Virus record (IMG/VR): IMGVR_UViG_2585427777_000028
Location: 1-19,959 of that record
Direction: 5' to 3' (one strand)
Origin: a virus
Lineage: Duplodnaviria > Heunggongvirae > Uroviricota > Caudoviricetes
DNA: 19,959 bases
Part shown: positions 1 through 19,451 of the stretch, piece after piece
Layout of the letters: each line of letters starts with the position of its first letter
Numbering within the stretch: the first letter of the stretch is position 1
Translations under genes and position numbers: made by a program
Notes under the pieces: model-generated
What the model was told of the DNA's origin: nothing
Databases searched by the model: none
What the model saw: only the letters and a program-made list of their open reading frames with translations

Positions 1-330
1 TCACTTCAGCGGGTAGTCATCAAACTCACCATAACGCACTTCGTTGATGATGTACGTGATCACCAAAAATATCGCATCCGGACTAGTTCCATCTTCATGC
101 GCAGGCATATGTTCATGCCTACCTGTCTGCAAACCAGTAATAAGCCATTACAGGGTGATAGTGATGCATCAACTACGTTAAGCGCAGAGAAATGATGCAG
201 TGGTGGGCGGATTGGCTTGATGAAAAGGTGGAGTGATCCACCTTAACCACTATCGAAGATCACAAAGCCTTGCAATCCAGTGCAAAGCTTTGTGTGTCTC
301 AGTTTTGTTTCATCGGTAATTATGTGTTCG

Positions 331-618
331 CTACGATGCAAGAATCCATACCAATAAGCATCCGATAATTGGGAAAGAAAAATCCATCAGGCTTGCCACA
401 TCCCAAGCGCGCGGATCAAAACCGCCCCACCACGGCATGTTAATCCGCTTGCCATGACCAAACATTTCAATCCAGCGATATTCTGCCTGGGTGTGTTCAC
501 GAGCAATGAAGAACGTACAACCGGCTATCGCACCGTAAGCCCAGTTTCCGGTAAAAATACCACCCAGTACCTGTGCGACCACAGCGCAAAGTGCGTGATG
601 AATTGGGGTTTTATCCAT
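331..618 (-). CDS. small hydrophobic (probable inner-membrane) protein, unknown function
   Basis: 95 aa ORF with two hydrophobic segments. Its ATG sits directly after the tailspike stop (TAGATG on the - strand), suggesting translational coupling. No family recognised. Confidence 0.45.
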   Translation of the reverse strand: MDKTPIHHALCAVVAQVLGGIFTGNWAYGAIAGCTFFIAREHTQAEYRWIEMFGHGKRINMPWWGGFDPRAWDVASLMDFSFPIIGCLLVWILAS

Positions 619-3213
619 CTACTCTATCTCTTTTGCTTTTTTAATTATCAATTCAAGCTCTGTTAAACGAGACTCAATGCGTTCACACCTTCTTCGCTGG
701 AATGCAGCCTCCAACCACAAACATTCATCTGGACGCAATCCCCAACGCTCACCAGCATGTACAACCAGTTCCGTGTCACCAGTATCGTATTCTTCAAAGT
801 ATTCGTGAACGATGTCTTCTCCTTCAGGGGATTTAGCTATAAATGACACCTTGCGCTGTGCCATTACAGGTTGGTACTCATCATCCCATTTATCATGACA
901 TAGCAAGCCAAATCTTGTTCCATCTATCCCCTTTGCAAGAAACGCATCTCTTACCTGCTGTGCAATTGCTCCGAAATGCCAACGAGCAGTATCCGAACCT
1001 TTAGCCTTAATATCGGACAACCACTGGTAAACGATAATATTTACGTCACCCCATGCGTCAAGAATTGCATCCTGATCCACCTCCATGATTTCTGAAAGTT
1101 GCTCTACTGTCAGTGGCTTTGTTTTCAATGTCTGGTCTGAAGTATTTATTGCCCCATTAGTTGCATATACTTGCGTCCACCGTTTAGATGATATCCCACA
1201 TGATGACGTATTATCTTTATTAGCACTTATATAGCCATTAACCTCCGCTGACTGACCGATATACAAATATGAAGATGTTGATAAGGGAGATTTAAATATC
1301 CATTGAGCATTGGTAAAGTCATAAATACCGGTATCACCTTTTTCACTAACATGAAAAGTTACATTCCGTAACGTATTCTTTGCATCATAACGGGCGGCTT
1401 GTGTTGTTGCCCTCGAAACAGTGAATCCTTTGTCATCAAGGTTTGCCTGCTCTATGACTTCACCACCAGGCATAATTTTACCAAGGCTTAACAAACCAGA
1501 GTTAGTGACAATATCATGGGTTGAATCAATGATAATACCAGGCTGATTTCTTGAGGTTGTTTTTACATGCATTACCTGTTGTGGCATTAATGTGTAAAAT
1601 GTAGTTTCTCGCCCACTATCACCATCTGGTATGCCATTTGTATTCCCCATTACAAGGTCATACCCACCTGCAATCATACGGAAAAACATTGCTTCTGGTT
1701 CATATGTAAGATTGCTAACATCTGGCGTTCCGGTATCATTTGGATCTGCTATTTCATAGGCTCTTCCTGCACCTGCCTGTATTTGCTGCACCCCAAGATA
1801 AACACCATCAAGTGTGTACTGATGCAAATATTTTCTGGTTGAAGAATATGCAGATCCAGCCTGACAAAAATAAATAGCAGTACCGTCACACGCAACTGTT
1901 TGCATATCCCTCACAAAATCGGCAATTTCAAATTCAAAAGTTGCTTCATTACGATAATCGTAATTGTACGCCTGCGGGTTAATAAATTTGCTGGTATCAA
2001 ATACTTTTACATAATAGCGAATTTGATCTGGTGTTGATGGGCTCTCACCAGGGCCAACATAACGTTTTGCTGTAGTAATCAGCCATCGACTCATAGGGTC
2101 GGTGCATAAAACATTTACCTGATTCTCGTAACCATCTTCCCATATGAGAAAAAACTCTGGTTCAATTTCACCACCATCAGTAGGGGTGAATCTGGTGATA
2201 TACTTTGCGCGATCCTCTCCTTTAGCTGTGCCAGCTAACCCCCATATCTGTAACTGGCCTCTTGTGTTACGAAAACCAACGCGCCCTATGGTTAAACCAA
2301 GACATTGATGTCCTAATTCTCTACTACCTTTAGTCTCCCAAAGAGGAGTTAACTCTTCATTCCCAAACCAATTATAAGCAACAACTTTATTAACTTCGTC
2401 ACCAGAACTAACGCTGCCACTCACATTTACCAAGCAATAAAGAACACTGTCATAATAATCAAGAACAGCACCCTGTATGACAGTATTTTTAATTGTTGCC
2501 AGTCGCAACCCTGACTTAACATGATTAGGAGTAGAAGGTCTGAAACCTGTATACATCCCCTTTTTTATAGTTTGTATTCTTTTTTCAGTAAAATCAGCAT
2601 CTGGCAGTAATCGATTCTCTGTGCGAAAATAGCCATTTATATACTTATTTCCATCAAAAACTTGATCTGTTATATATGTATTACCCCTTAGATCAACAAT
2701 CCTTCCTGTGATTTGTTTTTCTAACTCTTGAAAAGATAATGTGTCATCGGTGATGCCATCACCTTTTGCTCCCCATCCGCGAGGGTCAGCGTCATCACGC
2801 CACCGAGACATCTGCAATTCATGATATTTTTTAGCACCTTCCGGGTCTTCTAATTGTTGTCTTAATTGGTCAGGATCGTACTTAAGCACATTCGGAAAAT
2901 AGAACTGCTGCGTACCATATGCATCGTAAACAGCCATAGAATGGCCTTGCACGGTTACGAACTTGGCAATCTGTCCGTTATATACCGGATATCCAGCAGC
3001 GTTAATGATGATTGGTTGCGAAACAGGAACGTGAGAGCCATCTTCATTCTCTACATAAACCTGAATCTGGTTTTCAGGATTTACCGGGTCAGTGTCAATT
3101 TTACCGATATAAATTTTTCCATTTGCTACGGTTTTAAAAGAGCTAGCCATTGTGAAGAGTTGCGATGGCATACCTATCACAACATTTGGGGTTATATCAG
3201 GCATATTAGTCAT
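619..3213 (-). CDS. tailspike protein: P22 gp9-like N-terminal head-binding domain, pectate-lyase-like beta-helix, possible C-terminal intramolecular chaperone domain
   Basis: N-terminus [12 protein letters not shown]...[37 protein letters not shown]...[13 protein letters not shown]...VLKYDPDQ matches my recollection of the P22 tailspike head-binding domain. [12 protein letters not shown] is the usual opening of a pectate-lyase-3 beta-helix. The C-terminal region contains SDQTLK, resembling the Ser-Lys auto-cleavage motif of peptidase S74 chaperone domains. The track ORF runs to 3357 from a TTG; I take the ATG at 3211-3213 as the start (the ATG three codons further in is also possible). Confidence 0.8.
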
Positions 3214-3540
3214 CCTGTTTGAAGATTTAGATATTGAAGAAAACGGAATGACTGCAGACAAAGATGCAATTGTTTTGAAAAATAATCTTCTATTCACTTT
3301 AAAACTATGCAACATGAACAAAACAATTATTTTACAACAAACAAGAATCTTGATCAACAGACATATGCTTTATGCGTTTAATGCGTCATTTAAAAATAAC
3401 AAGTACTACTTTTATTCCTATCGTCCATGATTTTCATTTTCAAATATTATTAAATAACAATTCCTATTTATAATATCTGTCATTTAATTTGCTCCAGATA
3501 CAAGGAATCGCCGCAGCATGGCTACGGTGAATTTTGGGCA

Positions 3541-3565
3541 TAAAAAAACCCAGCCGAAGCTGGGT
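3541..3565 (-). terminator. rho-independent terminator downstream of ant
   Basis: On the - strand: ACCCAGC-TTCG-GCTGGGT hairpin followed by a run of seven U, about 19 nt after the ant stop codon. Confidence 0.6.
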
Positions 3566-3583
3566 CGTTGCGTTGGTTATCTG

Positions 3584-4462
3584 TCAGTAGTTATGAACTG
3601 AAGGAGGTAATTCTTTATTCTTAAGTCTCATCCATGCGGAAAGATTCGTTGGTCCGTCTGGCTCATTGATATCAACATCTCGTGTGTGGTTGATTAAAAC
3701 ATCTCTCGCCATATCGATAATACGGGAGAACTCATAACCGCAGTCATGACATCTGCCGGAATAGTTCGATTGAATTTGTTTTAGCGCCGGATACAGTTCG
3801 CGGAATAATGCCTGTGAGCGGTTGGCATAATCCCATAACCATACAAGGCTGTTTGCTTCTTTTGCAGAAAGCTCGTTGGTTTTCTTCTCTTGTTTGCCGA
3901 TGAACTCACCTTCAAGCACTACCCTGTGGATGTACTCTACAGCTTGCGGGATTTGTTCAATTGAAAGTTCATCAATGCTGTCAATACCAAAACGCTGATG
4001 AACCATATTGTATGCATCGTCATAGCGAAGTCCTTTCTTTCCTACCAGCATGTTTACTGCATCGCGTAGCGGTGTTCTTTCCTCAACAGTGGTTTTCTTT
4101 CCTTTAACATACTCGCCATGTTTGCGAATTGAAGGCAGAACTTCTGCTGTTACCCACTTGCGGAATTTGTGCGGGACTGAACCTTTATTGACTGCATCGC
4201 GGCAGCGCAGAACCAATGTATACATACCTGATTCGCTCACAATGCTTAGATTCTGCTCACCACCAAGGGTGTAACTTAAAGTTACTCCCTTTTCATCGTC
4301 ATCAAGTGCAGTAAGCGCCTTGCGTGAGTTAGTCAAAGCTAAAGCATCACAAACATCTTTAGCTACAAACCACGGCTCACCGCACTTGTTGATGACGCGG
4401 ATTTCACTGTCGCCGAATTTGAAGATGGTGAAATCGTTTTGTGCCTTTGCTATACTTTTCAT
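3584..4462 (-). CDS. ant: antirepressor Ant-like protein with BRO-N domain
   Basis: N-terminal [50 protein letters not shown] is a typical BRO-N motif. It lies downstream of arc on the same strand, as in P22 immI. Confidence 0.8.
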
Positions 4463-4524
4463 GTCAATATTTCCTAAGACGATTTGTTGATACCGAAGCC
4501 CTGACTGTTACCGCAGTTGGGGCT

Positions 4525-4728
4525 TCAACTTTCTGCTCTATCAGTTATATCTTTCCCTTCATATACTTCACCTATATTGCTAATGCTGGCAGAACATCCA
4601 AGATGCTTGTATCTTATGATGTCCAACACGCAGTCACTACACAGCATCCGACCTGTTTCTTTAGAGTAAATGTATGTTTGATCAGCGTCTGATTCGCTAA
4701 TGCCGCAGAAACAACATTCTTTACTCAT
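4525..4728 (-). CDS. small zinc-ribbon-like protein (CxxC...CxxC), unknown function
   Basis: 67 aa with Cys pairs (CCFCG ... CSDC). Sits between arc and ant; its start overlaps the arc stop. Confidence 0.5.
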   Translation of the reverse strand: MSKECCFCGISESDADQTYIYSKETGRMLCSDCVLDIIRYKHLGCSASISNIGEVYEGKDITDRAES

Positions 4729-4877
4729 ACCATTACCCCCTCTCTCTTCAAGCTGTCTATCAGGCGCTTGATAACCTCTGAGTTAAACGACCTGCACTCT
4801 TCCTTTGCCCTGCTACCTATAGCATCCTTTAACGACTGCGGCATCCTTACCAAAATCTTACTTATTTCTTTCTCCAT
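4725..4877 (-). CDS. arc: Arc-like ribbon-helix-helix repressor
   Basis: MPQSLKDAIGSRAKEECRSFNSEVIKRLIDSLKREG resembles P22 Arc (MPQFNLRWPREVLDLVRKVAEENGRSVNSEIYQRVMESFKKEG). Start taken at the ATG preceded by GGAGGG; the track start at 4913 is a TTG lying inside the promoter -10. Confidence 0.8.
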   Translation of the reverse strand: MEKEISKILVRMPQSLKDAIGSRAKEECRSFNSEVIKRLIDSLKREGVMV

Positions 4878-4913
4878 GTTACCCTCCACACAAACAACTC
4901 TTTTCGAATACAA

Positions 4914-4968
4914 AAGATAGCAAAGTGAGTATATCTAGTCAAAATTTTTTTGCATACACTTTGCTATC
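4914..4968. promoter_or_regulatory. divergent Pant / Pmnt control region with a 12-bp inverted repeat pair
   Basis: On the - strand, TTGACT, 17 nt, TATCTT lies upstream of arc. GATAGCAAAGTG (4916-4927) and its exact reverse complement CACTTTGCTATC (4957-4968) flank the region. Confidence 0.45.
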
Positions 4969-4991
4969 AAATTGAATACCAAAGGTGTGAT

Positions 4992-5240
4992 ATGGCAAAG
5001 GGTGTGTCAATTTCTCCAACTACGGTAAGAATCCCTGAATCTTTACGCGAGGCTCTTGCTGTCAGAGCATCAAAAAATGGTCGCTCTGTTAACTCCGAGA
5101 TCGTCATGATTTTGCAAGCCGCGATTGATGAAGATAGGTCGCCAAAGTCAGTTGAGTCATTTGCTCAGCAAGAAGCTGACAAATTCAAAGAGGCGCTGCT
5201 TGAGACGCTAAAGACCATGTATGCTAAGGATGAAAAATAA
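4992..5240 (+). CDS. mnt: Mnt-like ribbon-helix-helix repressor
   Basis: RIPESLREALAVRASKNGRSVNSEIVMILQAAIDE resembles P22 Mnt (the NGRS(V/M)NSE core is shared with Arc). ATG at 4992 is preceded by AAAGGTG. Divergent from arc. Confidence 0.8.
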   Translation: MAKGVSISPTTVRIPESLREALAVRASKNGRSVNSEIVMILQAAIDEDRSPKSVESFAQQEADKFKEALLETLKTMYAKDEK

Positions 5241-5776
5241 TGCTGCACACAATTCATTTCTTATGCCCCGTTAACACTGCCACTGTTGGGCAACTTCAGA
5301 ACCACTGTCTCACCGCATTATCTCAAGGCGCAACTGAATTAAATATCCATATATCAAGTCAGGGAGGGGAAACTGCCGCTGGCTTTACTGCGTATAACTT
5401 TCTTAAGTCACTCCCTGTTACCGTTAGAACTCACAACATAAGCAATGTTGAATCCATAGCTAATATCGTTTTCCTGGCTGGCTCAGAACGTTTCGCAAAC
5501 CCATTATCAAGATTCCTGTTACATCCTCTATTATGGTGCTTTGCCTCCCCAGCCGCCGACCATGCCAGATTGAGAGAGTACGGGAAATGCCTCGATAACG
5601 ATCTTGATCGCTTCGTTGAGACGTTCAATATCGACATCGGAACCCATATTAGGTGGGCATCCCTGATAGCAGACTCGACCATTTTGGATGCTAACAAGGC
5701 TCTTGAGCATGGCATAATTAATTCCATAAAAACTGCAAGGCTGGCATCCAATCAGGCAAACTGGTGGGTTGTTTGA
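5240..5776 (+). CDS. ClpP-fold (S14-like) serine peptidase
   Basis: IHISSQGGETAAGFTAYNFLKSLPVTVRTHNISNVESIANIVFLAGSERFANPLSRFLLHPL follows the ClpP core pattern (INSPGG...AG..IYD......V.T...GQAASMGAFLL.AG..GKR...PNSR.MIHQPL), with candidate Ser and His at the expected positions. Start overlaps the mnt stop (TAATG). Confidence 0.65.
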   Translation: MLHTIHFLCPVNTATVGQLQNHCLTALSQGATELNIHISSQGGETAAGFTAYNFLKSLPVTVRTHNISNVESIANIVFLAGSERFANPLSRFLLHPLLWCFASPAADHARLREYGKCLDNDLDRFVETFNIDIGTHIRWASLIADSTILDANKALEHGIINSIKTARLASNQANWWVV

Positions 5777-5805
5777 TGGGTAAATCATGATTACTCCTTA
5801 TAAAA

Positions 5806-5832
5806 AACCCACCTGACGGTGGGTTAATTTTT
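5806..5832 (+). terminator. rho-independent terminator after the mnt / ClpP-like operon
   Basis: AACCCACC-TGAC-GGTGGGTT hairpin followed by a T-rich run. Confidence 0.55.
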
Positions 5833-5915
5833 GCATTTACCTGGGCCATATTGACTACTTATAAAATGAGATCAATATTTAATCGCCCAATAACGGGTGT
5901 ATGTTGAGGTATATC

Positions 5916-6095
5916 ATGGCGAAAAAACCAGGTGAAAACACAGGAAAAAACGGCGGAATATACCAAGAAGTTGGCCCGCGCGGCGGTAAGAAAGACAATT
6001 TTGCCACCGTCAAGGACAACGAAAGGCTTCCACCAACAACAAAGCCAGGTCATGGCTGGGTATTAGATAAGCGAACTCCAGACAGCAAAAAGTAA
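5916..6095 (+). CDS. small Lys/Gly-rich hydrophilic protein, unknown function
   Basis: 59 aa (MAKKPGENTGKNGGIYQEVGPRGGKKDNF...) starting at the ATG preceded by GAGGT. Followed immediately by a terminator. Confidence 0.45.
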   Translation: MAKKPGENTGKNGGIYQEVGPRGGKKDNFATVKDNERLPPTTKPGHGWVLDKRTPDSKK

Positions 6096-6100
6096 TAATC

Positions 6101-6124
6101 AAGCCGGGTCACTCCGGCTTTTTG
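6101..6124. terminator. terminator hairpin between convergent genes
   Basis: AAGCCGG-GTCACT-CCGGCTT followed by TTTT on the + strand. The - strand gene's stop codon lies in the loop. Confidence 0.5.
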
Positions 6125-6474
6125 ATATGTCGCTCGCAGAACTCAACAAGCCTGCTCATTAAGTAGCAGTAAGTCTCGTTGGCTCTTCCTGGTTCAACAT
6201 CAACACCGACCCTTGAGCAGATATCGAATGCCATGTGAGCGCACTCATGGGCAATAGTAGATAGTTTGCCATTGAACACGCCTATCACATGCAAAACACC
6301 ATTCTCGCTGCTCATTGTATGAGACGCTCCGTTGGCATCCGAGTCCTGCACGTCCACACCAAGTTTTTGATGCAGGCGTTGCCATTCTGGAAAGTCTCTA
6401 CAAAACACAATTGTACCGCTCTCAAAGAGCGGAACGAGCATCTTTGGTACGTTTCCAATGTTAACTTTTTTCAT
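6109..6474 (-). CDS. small HExxH metallopeptidase-like protein (possibly ImmA/IrrE-type)
   Basis: Motif STIAHECAHMAF contains HExxH. Start taken at ATG (track M5) preceded by CAGGAT; the track start at 6486 is a GTG. Confidence 0.5.
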   Translation of the reverse strand: MKKVNIGNVPKMLVPLFESGTIVFCRDFPEWQRLHQKLGVDVQDSDANGASHTMSSENGVLHVIGVFNGKLSTIAHECAHMAFDICSRVGVDVEPGRANETYCYLMSRLVEFCERHIKKPE

Positions 6475-6504
6475 GGTATCCTGCACAAAACTAAGGAGGT
6501 TGGT

Positions 6505-6954
6505 GTGAGTGAAAAATTATCAGTTGAGATTTACAGGGATGCCAAAAAATTGATTAAAAAGGCATTGCTGATTTCCCTATCTTTGTTAGCCATTGCCATT
6601 GTTTATTTTGTGGCAGACAAAATCTATACAGAACAAAAAAATAGCAAAAAAAGCGCTGAACTGATTATGCGAGCCGAAAATGCTGTCAAGGGTACCCAAC
6701 CTAAGGTGTTCAATAGAACAGACCTTGGCGAAAGTCACTCTATTTCCATTTGGTTTATTAATGATTCAGATAAGCACATTCTTGTAGAAAAAAACGGTGA
6801 AAAATCGTTGTTTTCTACAGGAGGATATGTATCCGGTGATATCCATGCATATCATCAGGCCGGAAAGGCATGCGAAACCCTGTCTTTTTCTATGGATTCA
6901 AGTTCTGTGATATCCGCTTCTTGCGATTTTGATGATTATTACCTTAAAAAATAG
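6505..6954 (+). CDS. membrane-anchored protein of unknown function, at the position P22 uses for sieA
   Basis: GTG start 5 nt after AAGGAGG. N-terminal hydrophobic helix (ALLISLSLLAIAIVYFV) then a soluble domain. AT-rich. Divergent from the HExxH gene. The upstream 72 codons of the track ORF overlap that gene and are rejected. Confidence 0.5.
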   Translation: MSEKLSVEIYRDAKKLIKKALLISLSLLAIAIVYFVADKIYTEQKNSKKSAELIMRAENAVKGTQPKVFNRTDLGESHSISIWFINDSDKHILVEKNGEKSLFSTGGYVSGDIHAYHQAGKACETLSFSMDSSSVISASCDFDDYYLKK

Positions 6955-6971
6955 CCATCCATGGCGTCACC

Positions 6972-9140
6972 TCAATCCTGTGCCATTCCGCTTAGCGATG
7001 CCACAATCCCAGCCCTCGACAAACGCTGGAACTCTTCGTTTCCTAGTGCATCGCGAATTGCTTTTACGGCGGCCTTATTTGCCATAAATCTGCGTTCCGC
7101 CGCCGCTAATGCGCCATCACTTGCCCCAACTTTAACTGCCTTTGTCGCCTCTTGAACAGCCTTTTCAATAGCGTAACGACCACTTCTGGTTGCGGATAAT
7201 TTCGCTATCGATCCTTTTGCTATTGCATCAATTGCTCCACCTGCAGCGCCACCCACTATTGCTCCAATAACACCTCCTCCAGAGAACCCTGCGATAGCGC
7301 CAGCGGTTGGAAAAGCGCCAGACAATACGCTCTCTAAAACTGGATGAAGGCCATTCTCAAGAGTGCTAATGGCTGGCATAGAGCGCCCTGTTTGTTCAAC
7401 ATATCGAAGTGGCTTTGTTGCTGCTCTTGCAAGTTCTCCAAACCCCCTGGCAATCCTACCAAGCTCTGGAGAATATCGACTAATTGCCTTCACGTTTTGT
7501 GGGGTAAGAATAGTCGCGATATGCTTAATTCCAGCCTCTTCAGACTTACCTCCGCGTACCCCTTGCGATACCGCATCTTGTAATATTGATGCAATTGCTG
7601 GCGCGCGTTCCGACTCAGGTAGGGCGCTTATTATTTTATGGAACTGACCTGTTCCACTTTTTGCTGAACCCTGCAACGCCTTAGAGCCATTAGTTACCAA
7701 CTGATCAGTTGCAAGGTCTCTACCAAACGCTGCTTCAGCCTGTTCTTGTGCTGTAAATCTTGCTTTTGACAGATCATTAGCTTTTTGCCAGTCATCAAGA
7801 AAACCGCCATTTTGAGCCATTATGCGCATATCTTCCGTTGCTGCATCACGAAGCTCAGCCATGCGCCTTGCCGTATTTGCCTCACCAGACCTTATATACT
7901 TCTGCTCTGCGTCAGCAAGTTTACTTCGCCATGCCTTCATGGCATCAAACGTGATTCCTTTTTTACTAGTTTTAGCATAAGCAGATGCGAATTGTTTCAT
8001 CTCAGGAGTTAGCGGCATGCCGGCCAAAATATCACCCTGAATTGTAGCGTTCAGGTTTGACATTCTGGCCTTTGCGTCAGGCATCGTGGAGCGGACGCTA
8101 TCCCATGCGGCCTTTTCTGAATTTTTCATTTTATCAATACTTGCCAAAACCCTTTGTTTTATGGCTGCACTTTTTTCTGATGCAGTTCCTGCTTCAGCCC
8201 CAAACTCATCCAATGCTGAGTTAAATTTCGACTCTATTTCACTGAATGCTTTGGTGTGTGCATCCTGTGTAATTCCGGGCTTTGACGCCAGAATCCCCTC
8301 CGCCTGAGCAAGACCACGACTACCTGATCTCATGCCAGGAGTTAATGCGTTGATATCTATTCCAGCAGTATCTGCTGCTTTTGCTATTTCGTCTGACACA
8401 TTAGCTGACTGTCTGGCAATAATCTCTCTTCCTGTACCAGACTTTGCCATTTTCGAAACATCAGCAGCGGAATTTATTGCCCCGCCACCAAGAACTTGAG
8501 GTGATTTAGAGGTTAAGATCCTTCCAGCCCCAGAAAGTATCCCCTGAGCACCAATATTTATACCACCGTTAATGGCAGCATTTTGTGCAAAGTCGCCCTC
8601 CTGATTTGCAGCATCAGCAAGAGAACCTGCAATCATGTTTCCTGCGGAACCGATATCTCCAGCGAGCTTTGCTGGCGCTCCAGCAGCTTTTGCCGCTGTA
8701 CCAATTGGCAGGAGATACCCGCCAATTGTTTCACCGGCTTGCGCGTAATGGTCTGTCGGTCGATCGACTGGACGATAGACATCATCCAATACTTTTGGCC
8801 CACCAAGCCCCTGACTGATTGCATTAATCAGACTTGCGCCACCCTGTAATACGTCAAATGGTATGTTTACCAGACCACGACCAGCCTGTTCTGCAATTTG
8901 CCCTGCACTTTGACCACCTGTGAGCCAATCACCAGCTTGTTGCATCAATGATGGTTCTTCTTTCTGCTGCTGAGGTGGAGGGTATGCTGCATAAAACTGA
9001 TCTCTTGCTTCAGCCCATTTGTCACCAGCCTTAGGGGCAACAACCTCATCAAAATATTGCGCTTGAGCCTGTGCTTTCTGTTCTTCAGTTAACGCCTGAT
9101 ACTGTGGAGAAGCGATAACATCTTTCCATGCTTTAGCCAT
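6972..9140 (-). CDS. putative virion DNA-ejection (injection) protein
   Basis: 722 aa with a Gly/Ala-rich hydrophobic C-terminal segment ([36 protein letters not shown]). Lies just upstream, in transcription order, of the immI and tailspike region, where P22-like phages carry ejection genes. Assigned by position and composition, not by recognised homology. Confidence 0.5.
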
Positions 9141-9997
9141 TAATCACCCCATAAAGACGAGAAACCGGACTTATTGCTGTCGCTTCCTGATTTTCGCTCA
9201 CTAACATATGTGTCATAACCTGATGAACTATATCCCATTGATTCAGCCTCCCTTGCTGCAACCTTTTGAAATACAGAATATTGCGATCGGATTTCAGATA
9301 ACTGTTTTCTGACGACCTCTTCAGGCTGTGTTATATCGAGTTTCGCGATCAGGTTTTCCAGTTTTTGGCCTTCAGCATTGGAGAGGCTACCCATACCTCG
9401 CATAGTCTGCACGTTCTGGACAAACGCACCCGACTTTAATTCTTCTATCGCATTACGGTTTGCAAGCCCTTCAGCACTTGTGAAGCCATCTATATTTCTT
9501 CCTTCGAAGCGACCGATACCTTCAAGCTCCTTCTTACCAAGCAAAGAATCTATTTTCTCTATCCCTCGCTCACCAGTAATCAACGCATTGTTGTAATTAT
9601 TGTTGCCATCAAGCCATCTCTTAGCCTGAGACATTCTGGCTGACGTTGCAGCTTTACCGGTTAGAGGATCAATTCCCGTCGCTGCTATCTGTGAGTTAAG
9701 AGACAAAACATCCATATCCTGAAGTTGTCCTGCTCTTTCAAGGGCCGCCTGTGACTGCTTAAACACATACTTGTCGTGATTCAGTCTTGCCATTTGAGCC
9801 TTATAGGAAAGATCCTGCCCCCTAATAGCCCTCGCATTCGTCATGTCATTATTGCGAATGGTTTCGTTAATTCTTTGCTGCTCCTGCTGGCGACCAACCA
9901 TCTTGTCCTGAACAGCAAACGCCTTTTCTGGCCCAAGCGCACCGAGAGACATCGTAGTCAGCATGTGTGATAGTTGTTCATCTGACCAGATAGCCAT
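9140..9997 (-). CDS. putative virion DNA-ejection protein
   Basis: 285 aa; its stop overlaps the start of the 722-aa gene (TAATG). Gln-rich with coiled-coil-like stretches. The true start may be an internal Met because the upstream fragment overlaps it. Confidence 0.45.
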
Positions 9998-10230
9998 TGC
10001 TGACCAAGCGTTGGTGCGATTGTTGCTAACTGATTACCGGTTGCAGTGGAACCCAATCCACCTGTTGCTTCCGCTGCCGCCAGACTCTGATAGCGAGCCT
10101 GACCAGCAAGATCTTTGTACTGCTGAGAGTTGTAATACTGGTTAAGTGCCTGACCTTGCCCTTCCAGAGACGATAAGTTCTCGAGGCTGCCGACATACTT
10201 ATCAGCCAGAGGAGTATTCGATCTGTTTTC
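9958..10230 (-). pseudogene. 5'-truncated gene fragment (C-terminal ~90 codons of a virion gene) abutting the O remnant
   Basis: A - strand frame with no start codon reads ...[83 protein letters not shown]. It begins exactly where homology to O ends. Confidence 0.35.
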
Positions 10231-10424
10231 TTATTGAAGCCATATGTTTTCCGGACATAGGCCAGCATAACTTTCAACTGGCGAGCGGTTAAATCGGCAC
10301 TTGCGATAGCTTCCAGCAGCTCGTTAGCGAATCTGGTGTAACCATCATCGATATCAGCCACTCTTAGCTCCTGTTCGGCAAAGTTACCTCTGCCGAAGTT
10401 GAGTATTTTTGCTGTATTTGTCAT
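10026..10424 (-). pseudogene. O: truncated replication initiator O (N-terminal ~70 codons only)
   Basis: MTNTAKILNFGRGNFAEQELRVADIDDGYTRFANELLEAIASADLTARQLKVMLAYVRKTYGFNKKTDRI closely matches my recollection of the lambda O N-terminus. After about codon 70 the frame reads unrelated sequence to a stop. Confidence 0.7.
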
Positions 10425-10458
10425 AATGACCCCTGTGGATTGATCCAGTCTTTCTACA

Positions 10459-10737
10459 TCAGGCCTCGAAGAATTCGCCGTTCTTCGGGGCTTTTTCTTT
10501 TGTCAGCATTCTGGCTACTTTCTTAGCCAGTTCCGCCAACTCCTCGTCTTCAACACCCCATTCAAGAACAGCCAGAAGCATTCCCATTTTTGGGATGAAG
10601 CTGTCTTTCCATCGCGAAATTTGCGATTCATTAATCCCTAACGCGTCAGCAACCTTTCGCTGACCACGTACAGCAATTCGATTCAGGATGTTGCTTGTAA
10701 TTGCATTCGCTTTCTTGCGAGTACTTGTAAGTTGCAT
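10459..10737 (-). CDS. cII: CII-like transcriptional activator
   Basis: ILNRIAVRGQRKVADALGINESQISRWKDSFIPKMGMLLAVLEWGVEDEELAELAKKVARML resembles lambda CII (...SQISRWKRDWIPKFSMLLAVLEWGV...). Start taken at the ATG preceded by AAGGAAA; the longer track ORF would run through the nut site. Confidence 0.85.
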   Translation of the reverse strand: MQLTSTRKKANAITSNILNRIAVRGQRKVADALGINESQISRWKDSFIPKMGMLLAVLEWGVEDEELAELAKKVARMLTKEKAPKNGEFFEA

Positions 10738-10794
10738 ATGTAAGTATTTCCTTAACAAATAAGAAGTTATGCGCATCAACTTATGCGCGTTGTA

Positions 10795-10839
10795 TTCCCG
10801 CATTTCGGCGGGAATGAGGACCATGACTGTTAAAGAGCG
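10795..10839 (-). promoter_or_regulatory. nutR-like site (boxA + boxB) between cro and cII
   Basis: On the - strand: CGCTCTTTAACAG (boxA-like, rrn-type), a 12-nt spacer, then the hairpin TTCCCGC-CGAAAT-GCGGGAA. Confidence 0.55.
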
Positions 10840-10846
10840 GTGTTAC

Positions 10847-11074
10847 TTATGCTGCCAGAAGGTTCTTTTTGCTTATTTCAAGCATTTCGCTTGCTTGATA
10901 TTTGCCACCAGAAATCTCTTCGATTTTTGATGCGTATTTCGTTTTCCCAAAAAACTCAGTCTTAGGGAGGAAGCCGTTTTTGAGCCACTTATAGACAGCC
11001 CTTTCACTAACTCCACAAGCCTTCGCAACTTCAGGGATGCCGACACCTTTAATCGGCTCATCAAGATTTTGCAT
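10847..11074 (-). CDS. cro: Cro-like helix-turn-helix repressor
   Basis: 75 aa with HTH GIPEVAKACGVSERAVYKWLKNG. Divergent from cI, followed by nutR and cII. RBS AAGGA. Confidence 0.7.
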   Translation of the reverse strand: MQNLDEPIKGVGIPEVAKACGVSERAVYKWLKNGFLPKTEFFGKTKYASKIEEISGGKYQASEMLEISKKNLLAA

Positions 11075-11089
11075 AGGAATATCCTTTTT

Positions 11090-11152
11090 CGTACTTTCAG
11101 TACGTATTATGGTTGAACTGAAAGTTTTTGCAAGTGCTTTAGTATCGTACTC
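11090..11152. promoter_or_regulatory. cI-cro intergenic operator/promoter region (PR on the - strand; three dyad-symmetric elements)
   Basis: Dyads GTACTttcAGTAC (about 11091-11103), AACTgaaAGTT (about 11116-11126) and AGTAtcgTACT (about 11141-11151), centres roughly 24-25 bp apart. On the - strand TTGCAA, 17 nt, ATAATA fits a PR driving cro. Confidence 0.4.
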
Positions 11153-11860
11153 ATGGTTCAGAATGAAAAAGTGCGCAAAGAATTCGCCCAGCGGCTAGCG
11201 CAAGCCTGTAAAGAAGCTGGTCTTGATGAACATGGTAGGGGGATGGCCATAGCCCGTGCCCTTTCTCTTTCGTCCAAAGGCGTTAGCAAATGGTTTAATG
11301 CTGAGTCTTTACCGCGTCAGGAAAAAATGAATGCGCTTGCGAAATTTCTAAACGTTGATGTTGTTTGGCTTCAGCACGGCACTTCGTTAAATGGAGCGAA
11401 TGATGAAGATACTCTTTCATTTGTTGGCAAATTAAAAAAAGGGTTAGTGCGCGTGGTTGGTGAGGCAATTCTTGGTGTTGATGGTGCCATCGAGATGACC
11501 GAAGAGCGCGATGGGTGGCTCAAAATTTATAGCGATGATCCAGATGCCTTTGGCCTTCGTGTGAAAGGAGACAGCATGTGGCCCAGAATAAAATCAGGAG
11601 AATATGTACTCATTGAGCCTAACACCAAAGTATTCCCGGGTGATGAGGTGTTTGTCAGAACCGTTGAAGGACACAACATGATCAAAGTTCTTGGCTATGA
11701 CAGAGACGGAGAATACCAATTTACAAGCATCAACCAGGACCACAGGCCAATAACGTTGCCTTATCATCAAGTAGCAAAGGTGGAGTATGTGGCTGGTATT
11801 CTGAAGCAATCTCGCCATCTGGATGACATCGAGGCAAGGGAGTGGCTGAAAAGTTCGTGA
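11153..11860 (+). CDS. cI: CI-type prophage repressor (N-terminal HTH, C-terminal S24 LexA-like peptidase domain)
   Basis: C-terminal region contains GDSMWP (S24 catalytic serine motif). N-terminal HTH-like region. Divergent from cro. Confidence 0.85.
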   Translation: MVQNEKVRKEFAQRLAQACKEAGLDEHGRGMAIARALSLSSKGVSKWFNAESLPRQEKMNALAKFLNVDVVWLQHGTSLNGANDEDTLSFVGKLKKGLVRVVGEAILGVDGAIEMTEERDGWLKIYSDDPDAFGLRVKGDSMWPRIKSGEYVLIEPNTKVFPGDEVFVRTVEGHNMIKVLGYDRDGEYQFTSINQDHRPITLPYHQVAKVEYVAGILKQSRHLDDIEAREWLKSS

Positions 11861-11996
11861 CTTCATCGTCACATAGCTGGTAACCAGTGGCCTGAAGAGA
11901 CGTTTGGGTGATGTACATAGCATTTCTGGATAAAAATACAGATTCCCTTTATGGGAAATGAATCTATAATTCCCAAAGAGGGAACAAAATCGGATT

Positions 11997-12284
11997 ATGA
12001 AGGTCTTAAACGTAGAGAAGCTTCACAGTTTTAGCCGGAAGCACAATCAGGCCAAGGGGGCTTTAGACTCTTGGTATGATGAAGTGATAAGAGAAAACTG
12101 GAAAACGACTCAAGACATACGGAATAGATTTAATTCTGCCGACTTCCTTCCTAACAACAGGGTAATTTTTAATATAAAAGGCAATAACTATCGGCTCGTT
12201 GTCCAAGTTGTTTACCAGGCAGGAATGGTCATAGTTGAAAGAGTTGGAACTCATGCAGAGTACGACAAGTGGAGGCTTAAATGA
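11997..12284 (+). CDS. higB: HigB-family toxin (RelE-fold mRNA interferase)
   Basis: NRVIFNIKGNNYRLVVQVVYQAGMVIVERVGTHAEYD parallels E. coli HigB/YgjN (HYVFNVGGNELRVVAMVFFESQKCYIREVMTHKEYD). The toxin is encoded first, as in higBA. Confidence 0.8.
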   Translation: MKVLNVEKLHSFSRKHNQAKGALDSWYDEVIRENWKTTQDIRNRFNSADFLPNNRVIFNIKGNNYRLVVQVVYQAGMVIVERVGTHAEYDKWRLK

Positions 12285-12937
12285 ATCGAACTAGCTGGCG
12301 CATCATTAAAAATAGTGAAGAGCATGCTGCAGCTATGGAAAGGCTCATTGAACTTGCGTCTAGTGATTTACAACCTGGAACTGAAGATTTTGATGAGTTT
12401 GAACTACTAGGCTTGCTTATCGAGCACTATGAGTCACGCGAGTTCCCTATGGACAAGCCAGATCCCATAGAAGCAATCAAGTTCCGTATGGATCAACAAG
12501 GCCTCTCTTATGCCGATATGAAACAATACATTGGCTCAGCATCTAAAGTATCTGAGGTCTTAAATCGTAAGCGTCCATTAAGTCTTTCAATGATCCGTAG
12601 ACTACATGACGGACTTGGAATTCCTGCAGATATCTTAATTCAAGATATGAGCGCAATTGAATGGAGCCTAGTTGACGCAGAGGAAGAAGAAACAGCCATG
12701 ACTAGCGTCATTGCTCGGTGTGAGTCAGCCGTCACATCACCTTCTGCTTATTTCGCTGAAAAGGCTACAGAATCTTACTTTTCAAAAATGTTGTTCAGCG
12801 CAGTAAGGGGTAATGGCAAATGCAAAGAAAAACGGAATGTTTTTTCTTTGATAAGTAACTTGTCATCAAGTTTCACAGCGGCTAGCAACCTGAATGACGA
12901 AATGACTTCTGACGGAAATTACTTATTATTACCATGA
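12281..12937 (+). CDS. higA: HigA-like antitoxin (HTH) with a ~90 aa C-terminal extension, candidate chaperone-addiction region
   Basis: HTH segment LSYADMKQYIGSASKVSEVLNRKRPLSLSMIRRLHDGLGIPADILI is typical of HigA. Start overlaps the higB stop. At 218 aa it is much longer than usual HigA; the tail is Ser-rich and low-complexity. Confidence 0.75.
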   Translation: MNRTSWRIIKNSEEHAAAMERLIELASSDLQPGTEDFDEFELLGLLIEHYESREFPMDKPDPIEAIKFRMDQQGLSYADMKQYIGSASKVSEVLNRKRPLSLSMIRRLHDGLGIPADILIQDMSAIEWSLVDAEEEETAMTSVIARCESAVTSPSAYFAEKATESYFSKMLFSAVRGNGKCKEKRNVFSLISNLSSSFTAASNLNDEMTSDGNYLLLP

Positions 12938-13338
12938 AAATTGAACTCATTAGCAAAAAAGTTGAACGCTTGGTTATGACACGGCTAGAAGGCGATTCAA
13001 CAGCAAAAAAAGCCATAAAAACAACCGTTAATCTAAATAATGAACTCTACACTAATGTGAAGGATTCAAAGCTATTTAGAGTGAGATATTTTGCCTCCGT
13101 AACTATTGAAGGCAGGCTTGAGATGGACATCACATACGACTTTGACTTCCGGTCAGAAGATGATTTTTCTCATGAAATGGCAAAATCATATGAGGTAAGG
13201 TCCATTGCTCCCAATATGGCATATCCCTATATAAAAACATATGCCGAGCAAATTATCCTCATGTCAAACCTTGGTAGGTTCACTCTGCCTTATTTTGATT
13301 TCTTGGCCAATCCCATGGAAACGAACAGTAATAAGTGA
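12934..13338 (+). CDS. SecB-like chaperone, proposed third component of a TAC module
   Basis: APNMAYPYIKTYAEQIILMSNLGRFTLPYFDFLAN parallels the E. coli SecB segment [36 protein letters not shown] (shared PN..(F/Y)PY.(R/K) and hydrophobic pattern). Start overlaps the higA stop (ATGA). Confidence 0.55.
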   Translation: MKIELISKKVERLVMTRLEGDSTAKKAIKTTVNLNNELYTNVKDSKLFRVRYFASVTIEGRLEMDITYDFDFRSEDDFSHEMAKSYEVRSIAPNMAYPYIKTYAEQIILMSNLGRFTLPYFDFLANPMETNSNK

Positions 13339-13344
13339 AATTCC

Positions 13345-13373
13345 CCCCCCGGCCTCAGCGCCGGGTTTTCTTT
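13345..13373 (+). terminator. rho-independent terminator ending the cI-higB-higA-chaperone transcript
   Basis: CCCGGC-CTCAGC-GCCGGG hairpin followed by TTTTCTTT, directly after the chaperone stop. Confidence 0.55.
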
Positions 13374-13548
13374 GCCTCACGATCCCCACACCTAAAAACA
13401 CATAACCAATTGTATTTGTTGATGTAACTTGCTAAACCATGCAGTTCTGATCCCTGCCGCATAACCTTCATCAGCCACATTTTCAAAAATAAATTTCCTT
13501 ATATATCAGAATCATACTTCGTATAGTTAATAAATCACCAAAATTCGT

Positions 13549-13588
13549 ACCAATAGTTCTTGATAATGTCGAACTATTGGTTCATTAT
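13549..13588 (+). promoter_or_regulatory. candidate PL/OL region
   Basis: ACCAATAGTT and its reverse complement AACTATTGGT flank TTGATA, 17 nt, CATTAT. The arms resemble the AACTnnnAGTT dyad in the cI-cro region. Confidence 0.3.
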
Positions 13589-13634
13589 TGTCGCATCAGC
13601 AGGACGCTGGTAGCCAAACGGAACAGATTGGCAG

Positions 13635-13676
13635 GCTCTTTAACATTGATGGGATTGTCCCGCCGAAATGCGGGAA
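13635..13676 (+). promoter_or_regulatory. nutL-like site (boxA + boxB)
   Basis: GCTCTTTAACA (boxA-like), a 12-nt spacer, then hairpin TCCCGC-CGAAAT-GCGGGA. This is 19 of 20 identical to the nutR hairpin on the other strand. Confidence 0.55.
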
Positions 13677-13782
13677 CCAAAGAGTAGTTGGCTTTGGGGT
13701 GACGTGAAGTGCAGCTGCACGACGGCAACCGGAAGATAAGCACCCGGCGCGTCACCGCCAAAGTCAATCATCGGAGGTCAAC

Positions 13783-14082
13783 ATGACAGTAGTCATTACA
13801 TATCTTGCTGACGATAACGCCAGAAATCGCCGCAGAGCACGCAGACAGGCTCAACGTGAACAGGCAATGCAAGAGCAGCGACTGGCGCGAAAAATTGCGC
13901 TAAAGCTCTCTGGTTGCGTCAGAGCAGACAAAGCAGCATCACTAGGAAGCCTTCGCTGCAAGAAGGCAGAAGAAGTTGAGCGTAAACAGAACCGTATTTA
14001 CTACCGCAAGCCACGCAGTGAAATGGGTGTGACTTGTGTTGGTCGCCAGAAAATGAAATTAGGCAGCAAACCACTTATTTGA
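13783..14082 (+). CDS. N: N-like transcription antiterminator
   Basis: Arginine-rich motif near the N-terminus (DNARNRRRARRQAQREQ). First gene downstream of nutL, transcribed away from cI. RBS GGAGG. Confidence 0.6.
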   Translation: MTVVITYLADDNARNRRRARRQAQREQAMQEQRLARKIALKLSGCVRADKAASLGSLRCKKAEEVERKQNRIYYRKPRSEMGVTCVGRQKMKLGSKPLI

Positions 14083-14090
14083 GGTGAGAT

Positions 14091-14561
14091 ATGACAAAAT
14101 CATGGAGCGTACCTTTTCCTGAATCAGAAACTGAACATGATGGAATGCCTGTTTTCTGGAGATTCCAGGCGACAGTTGAAGAAGATGGGATAAAAATATT
14201 CGCACTTCAATATATAGCTTTTCATCAGACAGAGCATTATGCATGGTTGGTTCCTGCGCATTGGATTGTTAATTTTAAACCAGCACCAAATCAGTGGTTA
14301 CAGGAATGGAAACAAAGGAGAAATAGATATGCAATTAAGAAAGTAGCAAAAAATGCAGAAAGATCTTTTGCATTCCCAACGAAGAAACTTGCCATTGAGA
14401 GTTTATTGCGCCGGAAGAAATACCATTTAATGAGAATCAAACAAGATTTGGCTGTTGTATCAACTCTTGTTGATGGGATGAAGAATATTGATACATCAAC
14501 ACCAGATATTGAATATAACTTTGGGCACAACCAAGAAACAGAAAATTGGGTATTTTATTAG
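14091..14561 (+). CDS. hypothetical protein, first gene after N in the leftward early operon
   Basis: 156 aa with RBS GAGGTGAG. No family recognised. Confidence 0.5.
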   Translation: MTKSWSVPFPESETEHDGMPVFWRFQATVEEDGIKIFALQYIAFHQTEHYAWLVPAHWIVNFKPAPNQWLQEWKQRRNRYAIKKVAKNAERSFAFPTKKLAIESLLRRKKYHLMRIKQDLAVVSTLVDGMKNIDTSTPDIEYNFGHNQETENWVFY

Positions 14562-14665
14562 TACGAGTAAGCACTGTGTATTCATTCCAACGAGTGAATA
14601 CACGGAGCAATGTCGCTCGTAACTAAACAGGAGCCGACTTGTTCTGATTATTGGAAATCTTCTTT

Positions 14666-14690
14666 GCCCTCCAGTGTGAGGGCCTTTTTA
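14666..14690 (+). terminator. rho-independent terminator (tL-like) upstream of cIII
   Basis: GCCCTC-CAGTGT-GAGGGC followed by CTTTTTAT. Preceded at about 14574-14605 by a separate 9-bp-stem hairpin (GTGTATTCA ... TGAATACAC). Confidence 0.5.
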
Positions 14691-14752
14691 TATGCATAAC
14701 AATAACGCTTCACTCGAGGCGTTTTTCGTTATGTATAAATAAGGAGCACACC

Positions 14753-14893
14753 ATGCAATATGCCATTGCAGGGTGGCCTGTTGCTGGCTGCCCTTCCGAA
14801 TCTTTACTTGAACGAATCACCCGTAAATTACGTGACGGATGGAAACGACTCATCGACGTACTTAATCAGCCAGGAGTTCCCAAAAATGGATAA
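14753..14893 (+). CDS. cIII: CIII-like protein (protects CII from FtsH)
   Basis: MQYAIAGWPVAGCPSESLLERITRKLRDGWKRLIDVLNQPGVPKNG is near-identical to my recollection of lambda CIII, but shorter at the C-terminus. RBS AAGGAG. Confidence 0.8.
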   Translation: MQYAIAGWPVAGCPSESLLERITRKLRDGWKRLIDVLNQPGVPKNG

Positions 14894-14999
14894 AACACTT
14901 ATGGCTATCCAGACTAAATTCACTATCGCCGCTTTTATTGGCGATGAAAAGATGTTTCGTGAGGCCGTCGAAGCCTACAGAAAATGGAGGTCAAAATGA
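14886..14999 (+). CDS. kil: Kil-like protein (host cell-division inhibitor)
   Basis: MDKTLMAIQTKFTIAAFIGDEKMFREAVEAYRKW matches my recollection of the lambda Kil N-terminus. Overlaps the cIII stop. Confidence 0.65.
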   Translation: MDKTLMAIQTKFTIAAFIGDEKMFREAVEAYRKWRSK

Positions 15000-15184: not shown

Positions 15185-15192
15185 GGTGAATT

Positions 15193-16457: not shown

Positions 16458-16480
16458 TTATTGAAAATAAGTCTCCCATT

Positions 16481-16777: not shown

Positions 16778-16787
16778 GGAATTTACC

Positions 16788-17692: not shown

Positions 17693-17693
17693 T

Positions 17694-19440: not shown

Positions 19441-19451
19441 TGGGGTAGTAG

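Follow-up and report, generated by a model that had tools for sequence, protein, structure and literature searches.

Here we have analysed by computational means the accessory interval that lies between the ejection genes and the immI region of a P22-like prophage, contained in the IMG/VR record IMGVR_UViG_2585427777_000028; by "the window" we mean the whole stretch of DNA analysed (19,959 nt, positions 1 to 19,959 of that record). The interval carries three open reading frames (ORFs), which code for a 59-aa protein (orf59a), a 121-aa protein with an HExxH motif (hkcC) and a 149-aa membrane-anchored protein, the last one at the site where phage P22 carries the exclusion gene sieA (hereafter, the sieA slot). 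Our results give good support to a mosaic structure, in which a conserved pair of genes is followed by a cassette that has been swapped at a fixed boundary. In our reading two independently assorting units meet here, inside the hypervariable region known as the 'ant moron', in a P22-like prophage that is defective: Unit 1 (5802–6504) is P22's own DNA, and Unit 2 (6505–6954) is a cassette recombined at the sieA start codon, or within a base or two of it, and placed under the conserved element that carries the sieA promoter (PsieA) and Shine-Dalgarno (SD) sequence. Our best explanation of the whole adds to this mosaic a functional coupling of hkcC with orf59a and a SieA-like exclusion by the 149-aa protein, and in this combined form we consider it slightly more probable than not. 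The new elements are the protein family found in the sieA slot, the defined cassette boundary with its many alternative cargoes and the conserved hkcC-orf59a pair; the ant moron and exclusion genes are already known in kind, and because the variability of this region had been described previously, the result is in kind not a surprising one.

The mosaic rests on the comparison with P22. By megablast and pairwise alignment, positions 5802–6509 of the window are 99.4% identical to P22; the identity begins at 5802, just ahead of a hairpin that follows the mnt operon, and ends at the GTG start codon of the 149-aa gene or within two bases after it. Inside this segment lie the post-mnt hairpin of P22, orf59a, the terminator called 't mnt' in P22, the 121-aa ORF, PsieA, and the SD sequence and GTG of sieA. 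The 121-aa ORF is hkcC of phage HK620 (100% identity), a coding sequence that is not annotated here in the P22 reference NC_002371, and the 59-aa protein is 98% identical to the product of P22 orf59a and corresponds to HK620 HkcD. The P22 copies of hkcC and orf59a occupy nt 13,861–14,223 (plus strand) and 14,240–14,419 (minus strand) of NC_002371. Villafane et al. 2008 (PMC2629481) had already placed both hkcC and 59a in the hypervariable ant moron, from gene 16 to gene 9, among the P22 genes to which no function is assigned. Two of the three genes are thus resident P22-type genes, and the third alone occupies the position of sieA, which it has replaced at a hot spot of recombination. The initial annotation of this DNA, made from its sequence, had put all three genes where P22 carries sieA; this holds for the 149-aa gene, whereas the other two are found in P22 between mnt and sieA. 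Its view of the region from gene 16 to immI as accessory, horizontally exchanged DNA is upheld.

The three ORFs lie where they had first been placed, and the gap between the divergent start codons of hkcC and the 149-aa gene, estimated before at about 30 bp, is exactly 30 bp (6475–6504). In comparisons with relatives at 45–81% protein identity, in which synonymous sites are near saturation, the proportion of nonsynonymous differences (pN 0.11–0.39) is below that of synonymous ones (pS 0.63–0.95) for each gene; to judge from this purifying selection, all three ORFs are conserved and are genuine genes. They had been described as AT-rich and as having their own terminators. The first description fits the 149-aa gene (36.7% GC) but not orf59a (47.2%) or hkcC (46.7%), in a window of 43.6% GC, and the second fits orf59a but neither hkcC, on whose strand the orf59a hairpin has no T-run, nor the 149-aa gene, after which no terminator-like structure was found. 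PADLOC gave no match for any of the three proteins, and the NCBIfam search for named families returned noise only. Rfam recognised no known RNA within the interval, and the repeat search gave matches at chance level plus one inverted repeat inside the 149-aa gene. This 17-nt repeat (6780–6822, 88% complementary, with a 9-nt loop) is probably due to chance, because its second arm is altered in the E. coli homologs that are 90% identical.

Cassettes of the sieA slot and the 149-aa protein

Alignment of the window with P22 and three E. coli loci revealed a shared element, TGGTATCCTGCNCAAAACTAAGGAGGTTGGTGTG, with unrelated DNA on either side. The first 26 nt of this element, TGGTATCCTGCNCAAAACTAAGGAGG, followed by GTG, stands ahead of P22 sieA and of every E. 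coli copy of the 149-aa gene. The PsieA annotated in P22 corresponds to positions 6444–6474 of the window, and the promoter therefore lies inside the 121-aa ORF, in agreement with the earlier proposal that a promoter here must overlap coding sequence. It has been reported that the 85 bp upstream of sieA suffice for its function (Leavitt et al., PMC10883804). Since the DNA upstream of the element is unrelated between contexts, either the promoter determinants reside in the element itself, where TGgTATCCT could be an extended −10, or they come separately from each context.

A scan of IMG/VR found the 26-nt element in at least 119 contigs; the counts that follow are all among the matches listed. 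GTG stands at the same offset after the element in 112 of the 116 usable contigs, and the ORFs that start at this codon belong to at least 12 unrelated families of small, mostly membrane or secreted proteins (the labels membrane, secreted and coiled-coil were read by eye from the sequences). A 129-aa secreted protein (phrog_2651) leads with 29 of 119 contigs, followed by two families with a transmembrane (TM) segment and a coiled coil, cc109B (109/107 aa, 21 contigs) and cc109A (109 aa, 15), by membrane proteins of 62 aa (13) and 75 aa (8), and by SieA type A (6). A 116-aa multi-TM protein, a 99-aa secreted protein and a 140-aa protein without an obvious hydrophobic or signal segment (cyt140) occupy five contigs each, the 149-aa family four, a 106/103-aa protein with an N-terminal TM segment three and a 68-aa secreted protein two. 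Other than SieA, which is the only characterised product of the slot, these families are either missing from PHROGs and Pfam or entered there as of 'unknown function'. In 83 of the 106 contigs with enough downstream DNA, an ORF of 300 aa or more lies convergently within 200 nt of the cassette, and hkcC lies upstream of the slot in 31 of the 108 contigs with enough upstream sequence. On the other side of the cassette, P22 has the same 3' junction (GCCGTCCTTGGC) from the cassette stop to that of the gene 16 homolog, but only 27 of 115 sampled loci contain it.

A single hydrophobic segment (residues 20–37) is present in the 149-aa protein, and the N-terminal anchor noticed in the initial annotation is thus confirmed at the level of prediction. 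A Lys-rich N-terminus, predicted to be cytoplasmic, precedes this TM helix, which is followed by a helical stalk to about residue 60 and, at residues 67–147, by an eight-stranded β-barrel that AlphaFold2 (AF2) models with a predicted local distance difference test score (pLDDT) of 88. In the family C123, C140 and a WFIxDxDxH motif are conserved, the two cysteines being invariant; each of the 13 core members has exactly two Cys after the TM helix, and in 11 of the 13 the N-terminal flank of this helix is more positive than the C-terminal one. We propose that the protein is a bitopic inner-membrane protein, with its N-terminus in and its C-terminus out, which would expose a disulfide-bonded β-barrel to the periplasm.

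A word-indexed search found three relatives of this protein, and a profile search run exhaustively over 1.84 billion representatives yielded 15; some 12 of these are full-length proteins, with 23–36% identity. Every relative with a readable context (five E. coli genomes, one of Salmonella, and three metagenomic or assembly contigs with 24–32% identity) is encoded downstream of mnt in a P22-like prophage, by a gene convergent with that for the last ejection protein, and this conservation of position covers family members at 23–64% identity. The adjoining gene 16 homologs differ in type: some are of the P22_gp16 type (603–615 aa), a second type has 730 aa, and a third has 894 aa with an SLT domain. 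The upstream neighbours vary as well: the hkcC-orf59a pair, genes with a Panacea domain, a P63C gene or a gene for a YafO toxin, while in other cases mnt itself comes next. No homology to anything annotated was detected. BLASTP gave no alignment with P22 SieA (type A) at E≤100, so that the comparison proposed in the initial annotation brought out no similarity; among the PHROGs no family matched below E 0.087, phrog_7745 (SieA) not being matched; tblastn against 50,697 phage records gave no real match; the PDB profile search returned designed TM helices only; and in 185,579 species-representative genomes there was no confirmed locus, the family alignment being too divergent for search patterns.

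We infer that the 149-aa protein is most likely a SieA-analogous exclusion protein which is not a member of the SieA family. This is based on its slot, the shared expression signals, the position beside the ejection genes, the predicted envelope location, and the retention of an intact gene in a decayed prophage that has lost everything from the replication to the head genes. Made by the prophage, the protein would, like SieA, block the delivery of DNA by incoming P22-like phages. The initial annotation had suggested an exclusion or regulatory role for the three genes as a module, and the best guess now retains exclusion for the 149-aa protein. Because no terminator follows its gene, transcription would be expected to continue, in antisense, through the 3' part of the gene 16 homolog; in phage BTP1 the antisense RNA STnc6030, which covers the injection gene at its 3' end, confers exclusion by itself (PMC7067206).

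A different target would change this picture. The 149-aa protein might be a lysogenic-conversion envelope protein that acts elsewhere than on the ejection conduit, either as a PliC/MliC-like inhibitor of peptidoglycan hydrolases or as a ligand-binding partner of a host membrane protein, as are ToxS and VtrC. T4 Sp, for instance, inhibits the gp5 lysozyme, and P22-like ejection proteins can carry hydrolase domains, as shown by the SLT domain encoded next to one member of the 149-aa family and by the match of the N-terminal region of the 722-aa ejection protein of the window to a transglycosylase PHROG. PliC and MliC have the motifs SxSGAxY and YxxxTKG. These motifs are absent from the 149-aa protein, which has no sequence or profile similarity to PliC/MliC, and the gene 16 homologs next to it are of several types, only some of which have a hydrolase domain. 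Furthermore, if the inhibited hydrolase were that of the incoming phage, the outcome would still be exclusion, and for this reason the alternative overlaps in part with the reading that we prefer; we regard it as unlikely, though worth keeping in mind. Far less probable is a Cap15-like effector, that is, a membrane-disrupting abortive-infection protein with a cytoplasmic barrel that senses a signal. None of the loci examined has a gene for a cyclase or for another signalling protein next to the cassette, the two invariant cysteines and the positive-inside bias point to a periplasmic barrel, and PADLOC did not match the protein.

The conserved hkcC-orf59a pair

The linkage that is conserved in the interval is that of hkcC with orf59a. 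In five of five distant contexts (Klebsiella oxytoca, Rosenbergiella and three metagenomic or assembly sources), where hkcC is 45–64% identical to that of the window, a convergent orf59a homolog of 59/60 aa, 61–81% identical, lies 12–30 bp after hkcC; the identities of orf59a and hkcC are, context by context, 78/58, 76/60, 61/45, 81/64 and 75/57%. At least four of the five contexts are tail-gene regions of siphoviruses, the fifth being a short contig; in three the pair sits between the tail tube/chaperone genes and the tape measure gene, and in the siphovirus contexts hkcC is read in the same direction as the tail genes. Among the matches listed in the IMG/VR scan, orf59a is also present in 27 of the 31 P22-like contigs that carry hkcC. 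By these sequence comparisons, the pair is conserved, convergent and moves between phage types. In the most divergent of its contexts, found in two contigs (L009 and L010; hkcC 45% identical), the next gene (1330–1968 and 1229–1867, respectively) codes for a 212-aa PF18894 'PhageMetallopep' protein, a second putative metallopeptidase beside the pair.

HkcC matches phrog_1365, and 32 homologs were detectable in a large protein collection. Its signature is H76-E77-x-x-H80 followed by N99-E100-T101-Y, the HExxH forming part of the AHECAH motif (residues 75–80) already noticed in the initial annotation. The hkcC clade has 27 invariant positions, among them H76, E77, H80, N99, E100 and T101; with remote relatives at 29–41% identity added (ST64T/L orf129, mEp554 gp72, the N4-like phages phCDa and KP8, and the T7-like Aeromonas phage Lolek), T73, H76, E77, H80, G90 and Y104 remain invariant, and E100 nearly so, down to 29% identity. 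The HExxH by itself is weak evidence, because 1.9% of shuffles of the HkcC sequence contain one, and it is the family-wide invariance that counts. The AF2 model (mean pLDDT 83, two of the five models being confident) has a β-hairpin of strands 52–56 and 59–65, a helix 74–88 that carries the HExxH, and a helix 100–116 that opens with E100. An HExxH with a Glu 20 residues past the second His, at the opening of the next helix, is the gluzincin arrangement (H142, H146 and E166 in thermolysin). HkcC is a putative minimal zincin-like metalloenzyme, and the searches did not confirm such a fold: the Foldseek search of the model against the PDB gave weak structural matches and no significant one, Pfam and NCBIfam gave nothing for the family, and the PDB profile search gave 0 matches. 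In phage L and ST64T, orf129 (L021, 2501–2890) represents a paralogous hkcC branch, 29–39% identical, located in the late operon after Rz/Rz1; this branch has further members in N4-like and lambdoid phages, both lytic and temperate. We also considered whether hkcC could be pid, and rejected it, as pid encodes 86 aa and has its transcription start at nt 40,880 of NC_002371, at another locus (PMC8835761).

HkcC may also not be a peptidase, and its HExxH could hold a metal for other chemistry (for example iron, in an HExxH-type hydroxylase) or its cysteines could form a structural zinc site. The phage L homolog does match TIGR04267 (aKG-HExxH-type peptide hydroxylase) at E 0.007, C25, C78, C86 and C103 are invariant within the hkcC clade, and no significant match to a zincin fold was obtained. 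The TIGR04267 match is, however, far under threshold (16 bits, the cut-off being 40) and covers the motif region only, C78 is not kept in the remote homologs, and the spacing from HExxH to Glu is that of the gluzincins; these points leave the non-peptidase alternative with little probability in our judgement.

The initial annotation had seen in the 121-aa protein a possible ImmA/IrrE-like protease, and this assignment is not borne out. Peptidase_M78 (PF06114) was not matched by the window protein at E≤1, by 19 family members at E≤10, or by the remote homologs, and none of the contexts examined has a neighbouring gene for a helix-turn-helix (HTH) repressor of the Xre/ImmR type; HkcC does have the HExxH and the Glu after it, but this is common to all gluzincins and not specific to M78. 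Nor is there support for a single acquired module, in which such a protease would act together with the divergently encoded membrane protein for exclusion or regulation. The start codons 30 bp apart, the overlapping control regions and the HExxH motif would suit such a module. Yet hkcC and orf59a are resident genes of P22 and HK620 and are conserved with each other, hkcC lies upstream of 10 of the 12 slot-cassette families among the matches listed, and the 149-aa gene also occurs immediately behind mnt, or with a Panacea-domain, P63C or YafO gene in the place of hkcC. Independent assortment largely refutes the single-module reading, which we now hold to be very improbable.

Orf59a, of which the Lys/Gly-rich character had been recognised earlier, has an isoelectric point of 9.9, and its gene is under purifying selection (pN 0.11–0.28, pS 0.78–0.95). 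The protein scores 19.4 bits (E 0.0013) on the Pfam family YjzC (PF14168), below the cut-off of 25, and its homologs 17.6–18.1 bits. By tblastn it also matches phiCT9441A_43 of a Clostridium phage (E 4e-4, 43% identity over 45–47 aligned residues), which scores 48.7 bits on PF14168 and is a bona fide YjzC member. By its sequence, then, Orf59a is a divergent YjzC-like protein.

The signals around orf59a were compared in seven loci (the window, L006, L008, L009, L012, L014 and L017). A sigma-70-type promoter, TTGACT-17-AATATT, precedes the 59-aa gene in six of them, including siphovirus prophages of Klebsiella and Rosenbergiella, L009 having a looser candidate only. At the predicted 5' end of the mRNA a stem-loop follows, whose stem sequence varies among loci with the pairing mostly kept (GCCC/GGGT, GCC/GGC, GCTC/GAGC, TTCC/GGAA, judged by eye and with no formal covariation count; the pairing is weak in L008), and which could have a regulatory function or protect the 5' end of the mRNA. 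In all seven loci a GC-rich hairpin with a T-run closes orf59a and overlaps the 3' end of hkcC; in the window it covers the last hkcC codons and has no T-run on the minus strand. With a predicted promoter and terminator of its own, and inserted in the late operons of two phage types, orf59a has the traits of a moron, and we propose that it is a self-contained one, with its sigma-70 promoter, 5' hairpin and intrinsic terminator. As its direction is against that of the late operon, its product is presumably made in the lysogen. The strand of hkcC is that of the late operon (genes 16 and 9), and no promoter common to the seven loci was found before it; hkcC is thus presumably made by late read-through.

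We favour a functional coupling of the two genes, with the layout of a 'non-contiguous operon'. Orf59a would be made in the lysogen, and during the lytic cycle it would be countered both by antisense late transcription and by HkcC acting as a late metalloprotease. Alternatively, HkcC alone could be a lytic-cycle enzyme of host takeover or anti-defence, its linkage to orf59a being purely physical, since the orf59a terminator is embedded in the hkcC 3' end (it overlaps the hkcC stop region in seven of seven loci) and the pair would for this reason move as one piece. Homologs at 29–40% identity are found without orf59a in N4-like (phCDa, KP8), T7-like (Lolek) and lambdoid (mEp554; ST64T/L orf129) phages, and hkcC stands without orf59a in four contigs among the matches listed, so that separation is possible. 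Against this, the two genes have stayed together during their parallel divergence and move together between unrelated phage types, a persistence that exceeds what is expected from purely physical linkage. We give this alternative a minor but appreciable share of the probability.

Several points weigh against the combined explanation that we prefer, in which hkcC and orf59a are coupled and the 149-aa protein excludes phages. The remote hkcC homologs of strictly lytic phages, and those at the ST64T/L orf129 locus, have no orf59a partner, from which it follows that HkcC has a role independent of Orf59a, and we keep open such a role in the lytic cycle. The slot also holds cassettes that are not necessarily exclusion genes, such as cyt140, in which no obvious hydrophobic or signal segment is seen by eye. 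In the 149-aa protein of the window, the two flanks of the TM helix differ only modestly in charge (five versus four positive residues), and this protein has neither sequence similarity to P22 SieA (type A) nor the motif or topology of the SieA types. The late promoter region is deleted in this defective prophage, and therefore late read-through of hkcC cannot occur in it. Finally, our literature search did not find a functional study of hkcC, orf59a or YjzC.

A more far-reaching proposal has two parts. The PsieA/SD/GTG segment, of about 34 nt, would be a 'landing pad' at which at least a dozen unrelated envelope proteins are swapped, each a distinct exclusion device against a fast-evolving conduit of ejection proteins; and hkcC-orf59a would be a new mobile pair, in which a YjzC-like effector expressed in lysogeny is removed by a late minimal metalloprotease. 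We put this forward tentatively, as possible rather than probable. If other proteins of the slot do exclude P22-like phages, they would provide independent handles on the periplasmic conduit of DNA delivery, and a panel, ready to use, on which the arms race of exclusion proteins with ejection proteins could be studied. As for hkcC and orf59a, they have been in the P22 and HK620 genomes for more than 20 years without a function; as a conserved mobile pair, with hkcC belonging to a widespread family of small HExxH phage proteins, they can now be tested in the best genetic system.

The surrounding prophage

The window corresponds to a defective P22-like prophage, which carries on the minus strand the tailspike gene, ant with the sar RNA, the interval described here and the gene for the 722-aa ejection protein. 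No late promoter, nin, lysis, terminase, portal, head or other upstream late genes are present. The features of the interval are listed in Table 1. A deletion scar is apparent at 9140–10424: the gene 20 homolog (9140–9997) lacks about 170 N-terminal residues, matching positions 171–420 of a 435-position PHROG profile, and abuts a truncated O-like replication gene (10026–10424, first 76 residues only), which is followed by cII and cI. Residues ~19–223 of the 722-aa protein also match phrog_29864 (transglycosylase) and phrog_21143 (lytic tail fiber protein), and the corresponding protein of locus L018, with 894 aa, has an SLT domain.

Ahead of the interval, a mnt-like gene (4950–5240) is overlapped at its stop by one base by the start of a gene (5240–5776, plus strand) for a 178-aa ClpP-like serine protease (Pfam CLP_protease, E 2e-11), which has no P22 counterpart here. 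Because of this one-base overlap, the ClpP-like gene is probably co-transcribed with mnt in the lysogen. By eye, the Ser (VESIAN) and His (LLHP) positions of the ClpP type appear to be retained. Two RNA elements were recognised by Rfam on the plus strand: the sar RNA at 4464–4530 (74.5 bits), in an immI region of the P22 type, and the lambda cIII thermoregulator element at 14740–14798 (88.5 bits), in a lambdoid early-left region.

Table 1. Genes and signals of the interval, with positions in the window
Feature	Position	Strand	Remarks
Hairpin after the mnt/ClpP-like operon	5806–5825	both	T-runs on both strands
Predicted sigma-70-type promoter of orf59a	5851–5879	+	TTGACT-17 nt-AATATT
Stem-loop at the predicted 5' end of the orf59a mRNA	5884–5899	+	CGCCC-AATAA-CGGGTG
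orf59a	5916–6095	+	59 aa
Intrinsic terminator of the orf59a/mnt transcript ('t mnt' in P22)	6101–6120	+ only	Hairpin and T-run
hkcC (121-aa ORF)	6109–6474	−	121 aa
Conserved 5' boundary of the sieA slot	6474–6507	+	TGGTATCCTGCACAAAACTAAGGAGGTTGGTGTG; possible extended −10, 5' untranslated region, SD, GTG
sieA-slot cassette gene	6505–6954	+	149 aa; GTG start; AAGGAGG Shine-Dalgarno in front
3' junction, cassette stop to stop of the gene 16 homolog	6955–6966		GCCATCCATGGC
Gene 16-type ejection ('DNA transfer') protein	6972–9140	−	722 aa; phrog_770, E 3.7e-216; convergent with the cassette gene

Relation to known systems

HkcC has in common with ImmA/IrrE and with minimal gluzincins the HExxH with a downstream Glu. 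The 'minigluzincins' resemble it also in their small size; the predicted order in HkcC is β-sheet, HExxH helix and Glu helix. Orf59a agrees with the YjzC-like proteins (PF14168) in length and in the signature GxYxEVGPRGG...LPPT...W, although it stays under the Pfam threshold, and the function of the YjzC family is not known. The YjzC member of phiCT9441A is likewise embedded antisense in a late operon. For the pair, the closest parallel in layout is Tai/Ati of phage phi80, a defence and counter-defence pair in a non-contiguous operon (PMC11364771). There, as here, one gene with its own promoter is read against the late operon and its neighbour is read with it. The proteins differ: Tai and Ati have 204 and 76 aa and no homology to our pair, in which the late-strand gene codes for a putative enzyme. 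We rejected an identity of the two pairs given these sizes and the lack of a meaningful tblastn match, and take the layout as analogous only.

The eight-stranded β-barrel predicted for the 149-aa protein is a fold also seen in PliC/MliC. Sequence identity is only 6–10% to PliC/MliC and 4–7% to VtrC/ToxS, with no Pfam or PDB profile match. T4 Sp and Imm, HK97 gp15, T5 Llp, phi80 Cor and TP-J34 Ltp are small single-pass or lipid-anchored envelope proteins that exclude phages; they prevent the DNA of an incoming phage from entering, in or close to the periplasm or the inner membrane, T4 Sp being described as acting on a phage lysozyme. The 149-aa protein is likewise a small, predicted envelope protein.

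The comparison with SieA is the nearest one. SieA proteins have three or four TM helices, whereas the 149-aa protein has one and is mostly a predicted periplasmic β-barrel, and the cytoplasmic FxRYPxEAxxFNK motif of P22 SieA (PMC10883804) is absent from it. SieA types A–C (Leavitt et al. 2024, PMC10883804) are nevertheless encoded in the very same slot, convergent with gene 16 and downstream of mnt; they are headed by the same 26-nt PsieA/SD element and GTG, and like the 149-aa protein they are small, predicted inner-membrane proteins that are presumably expressed by the prophage.

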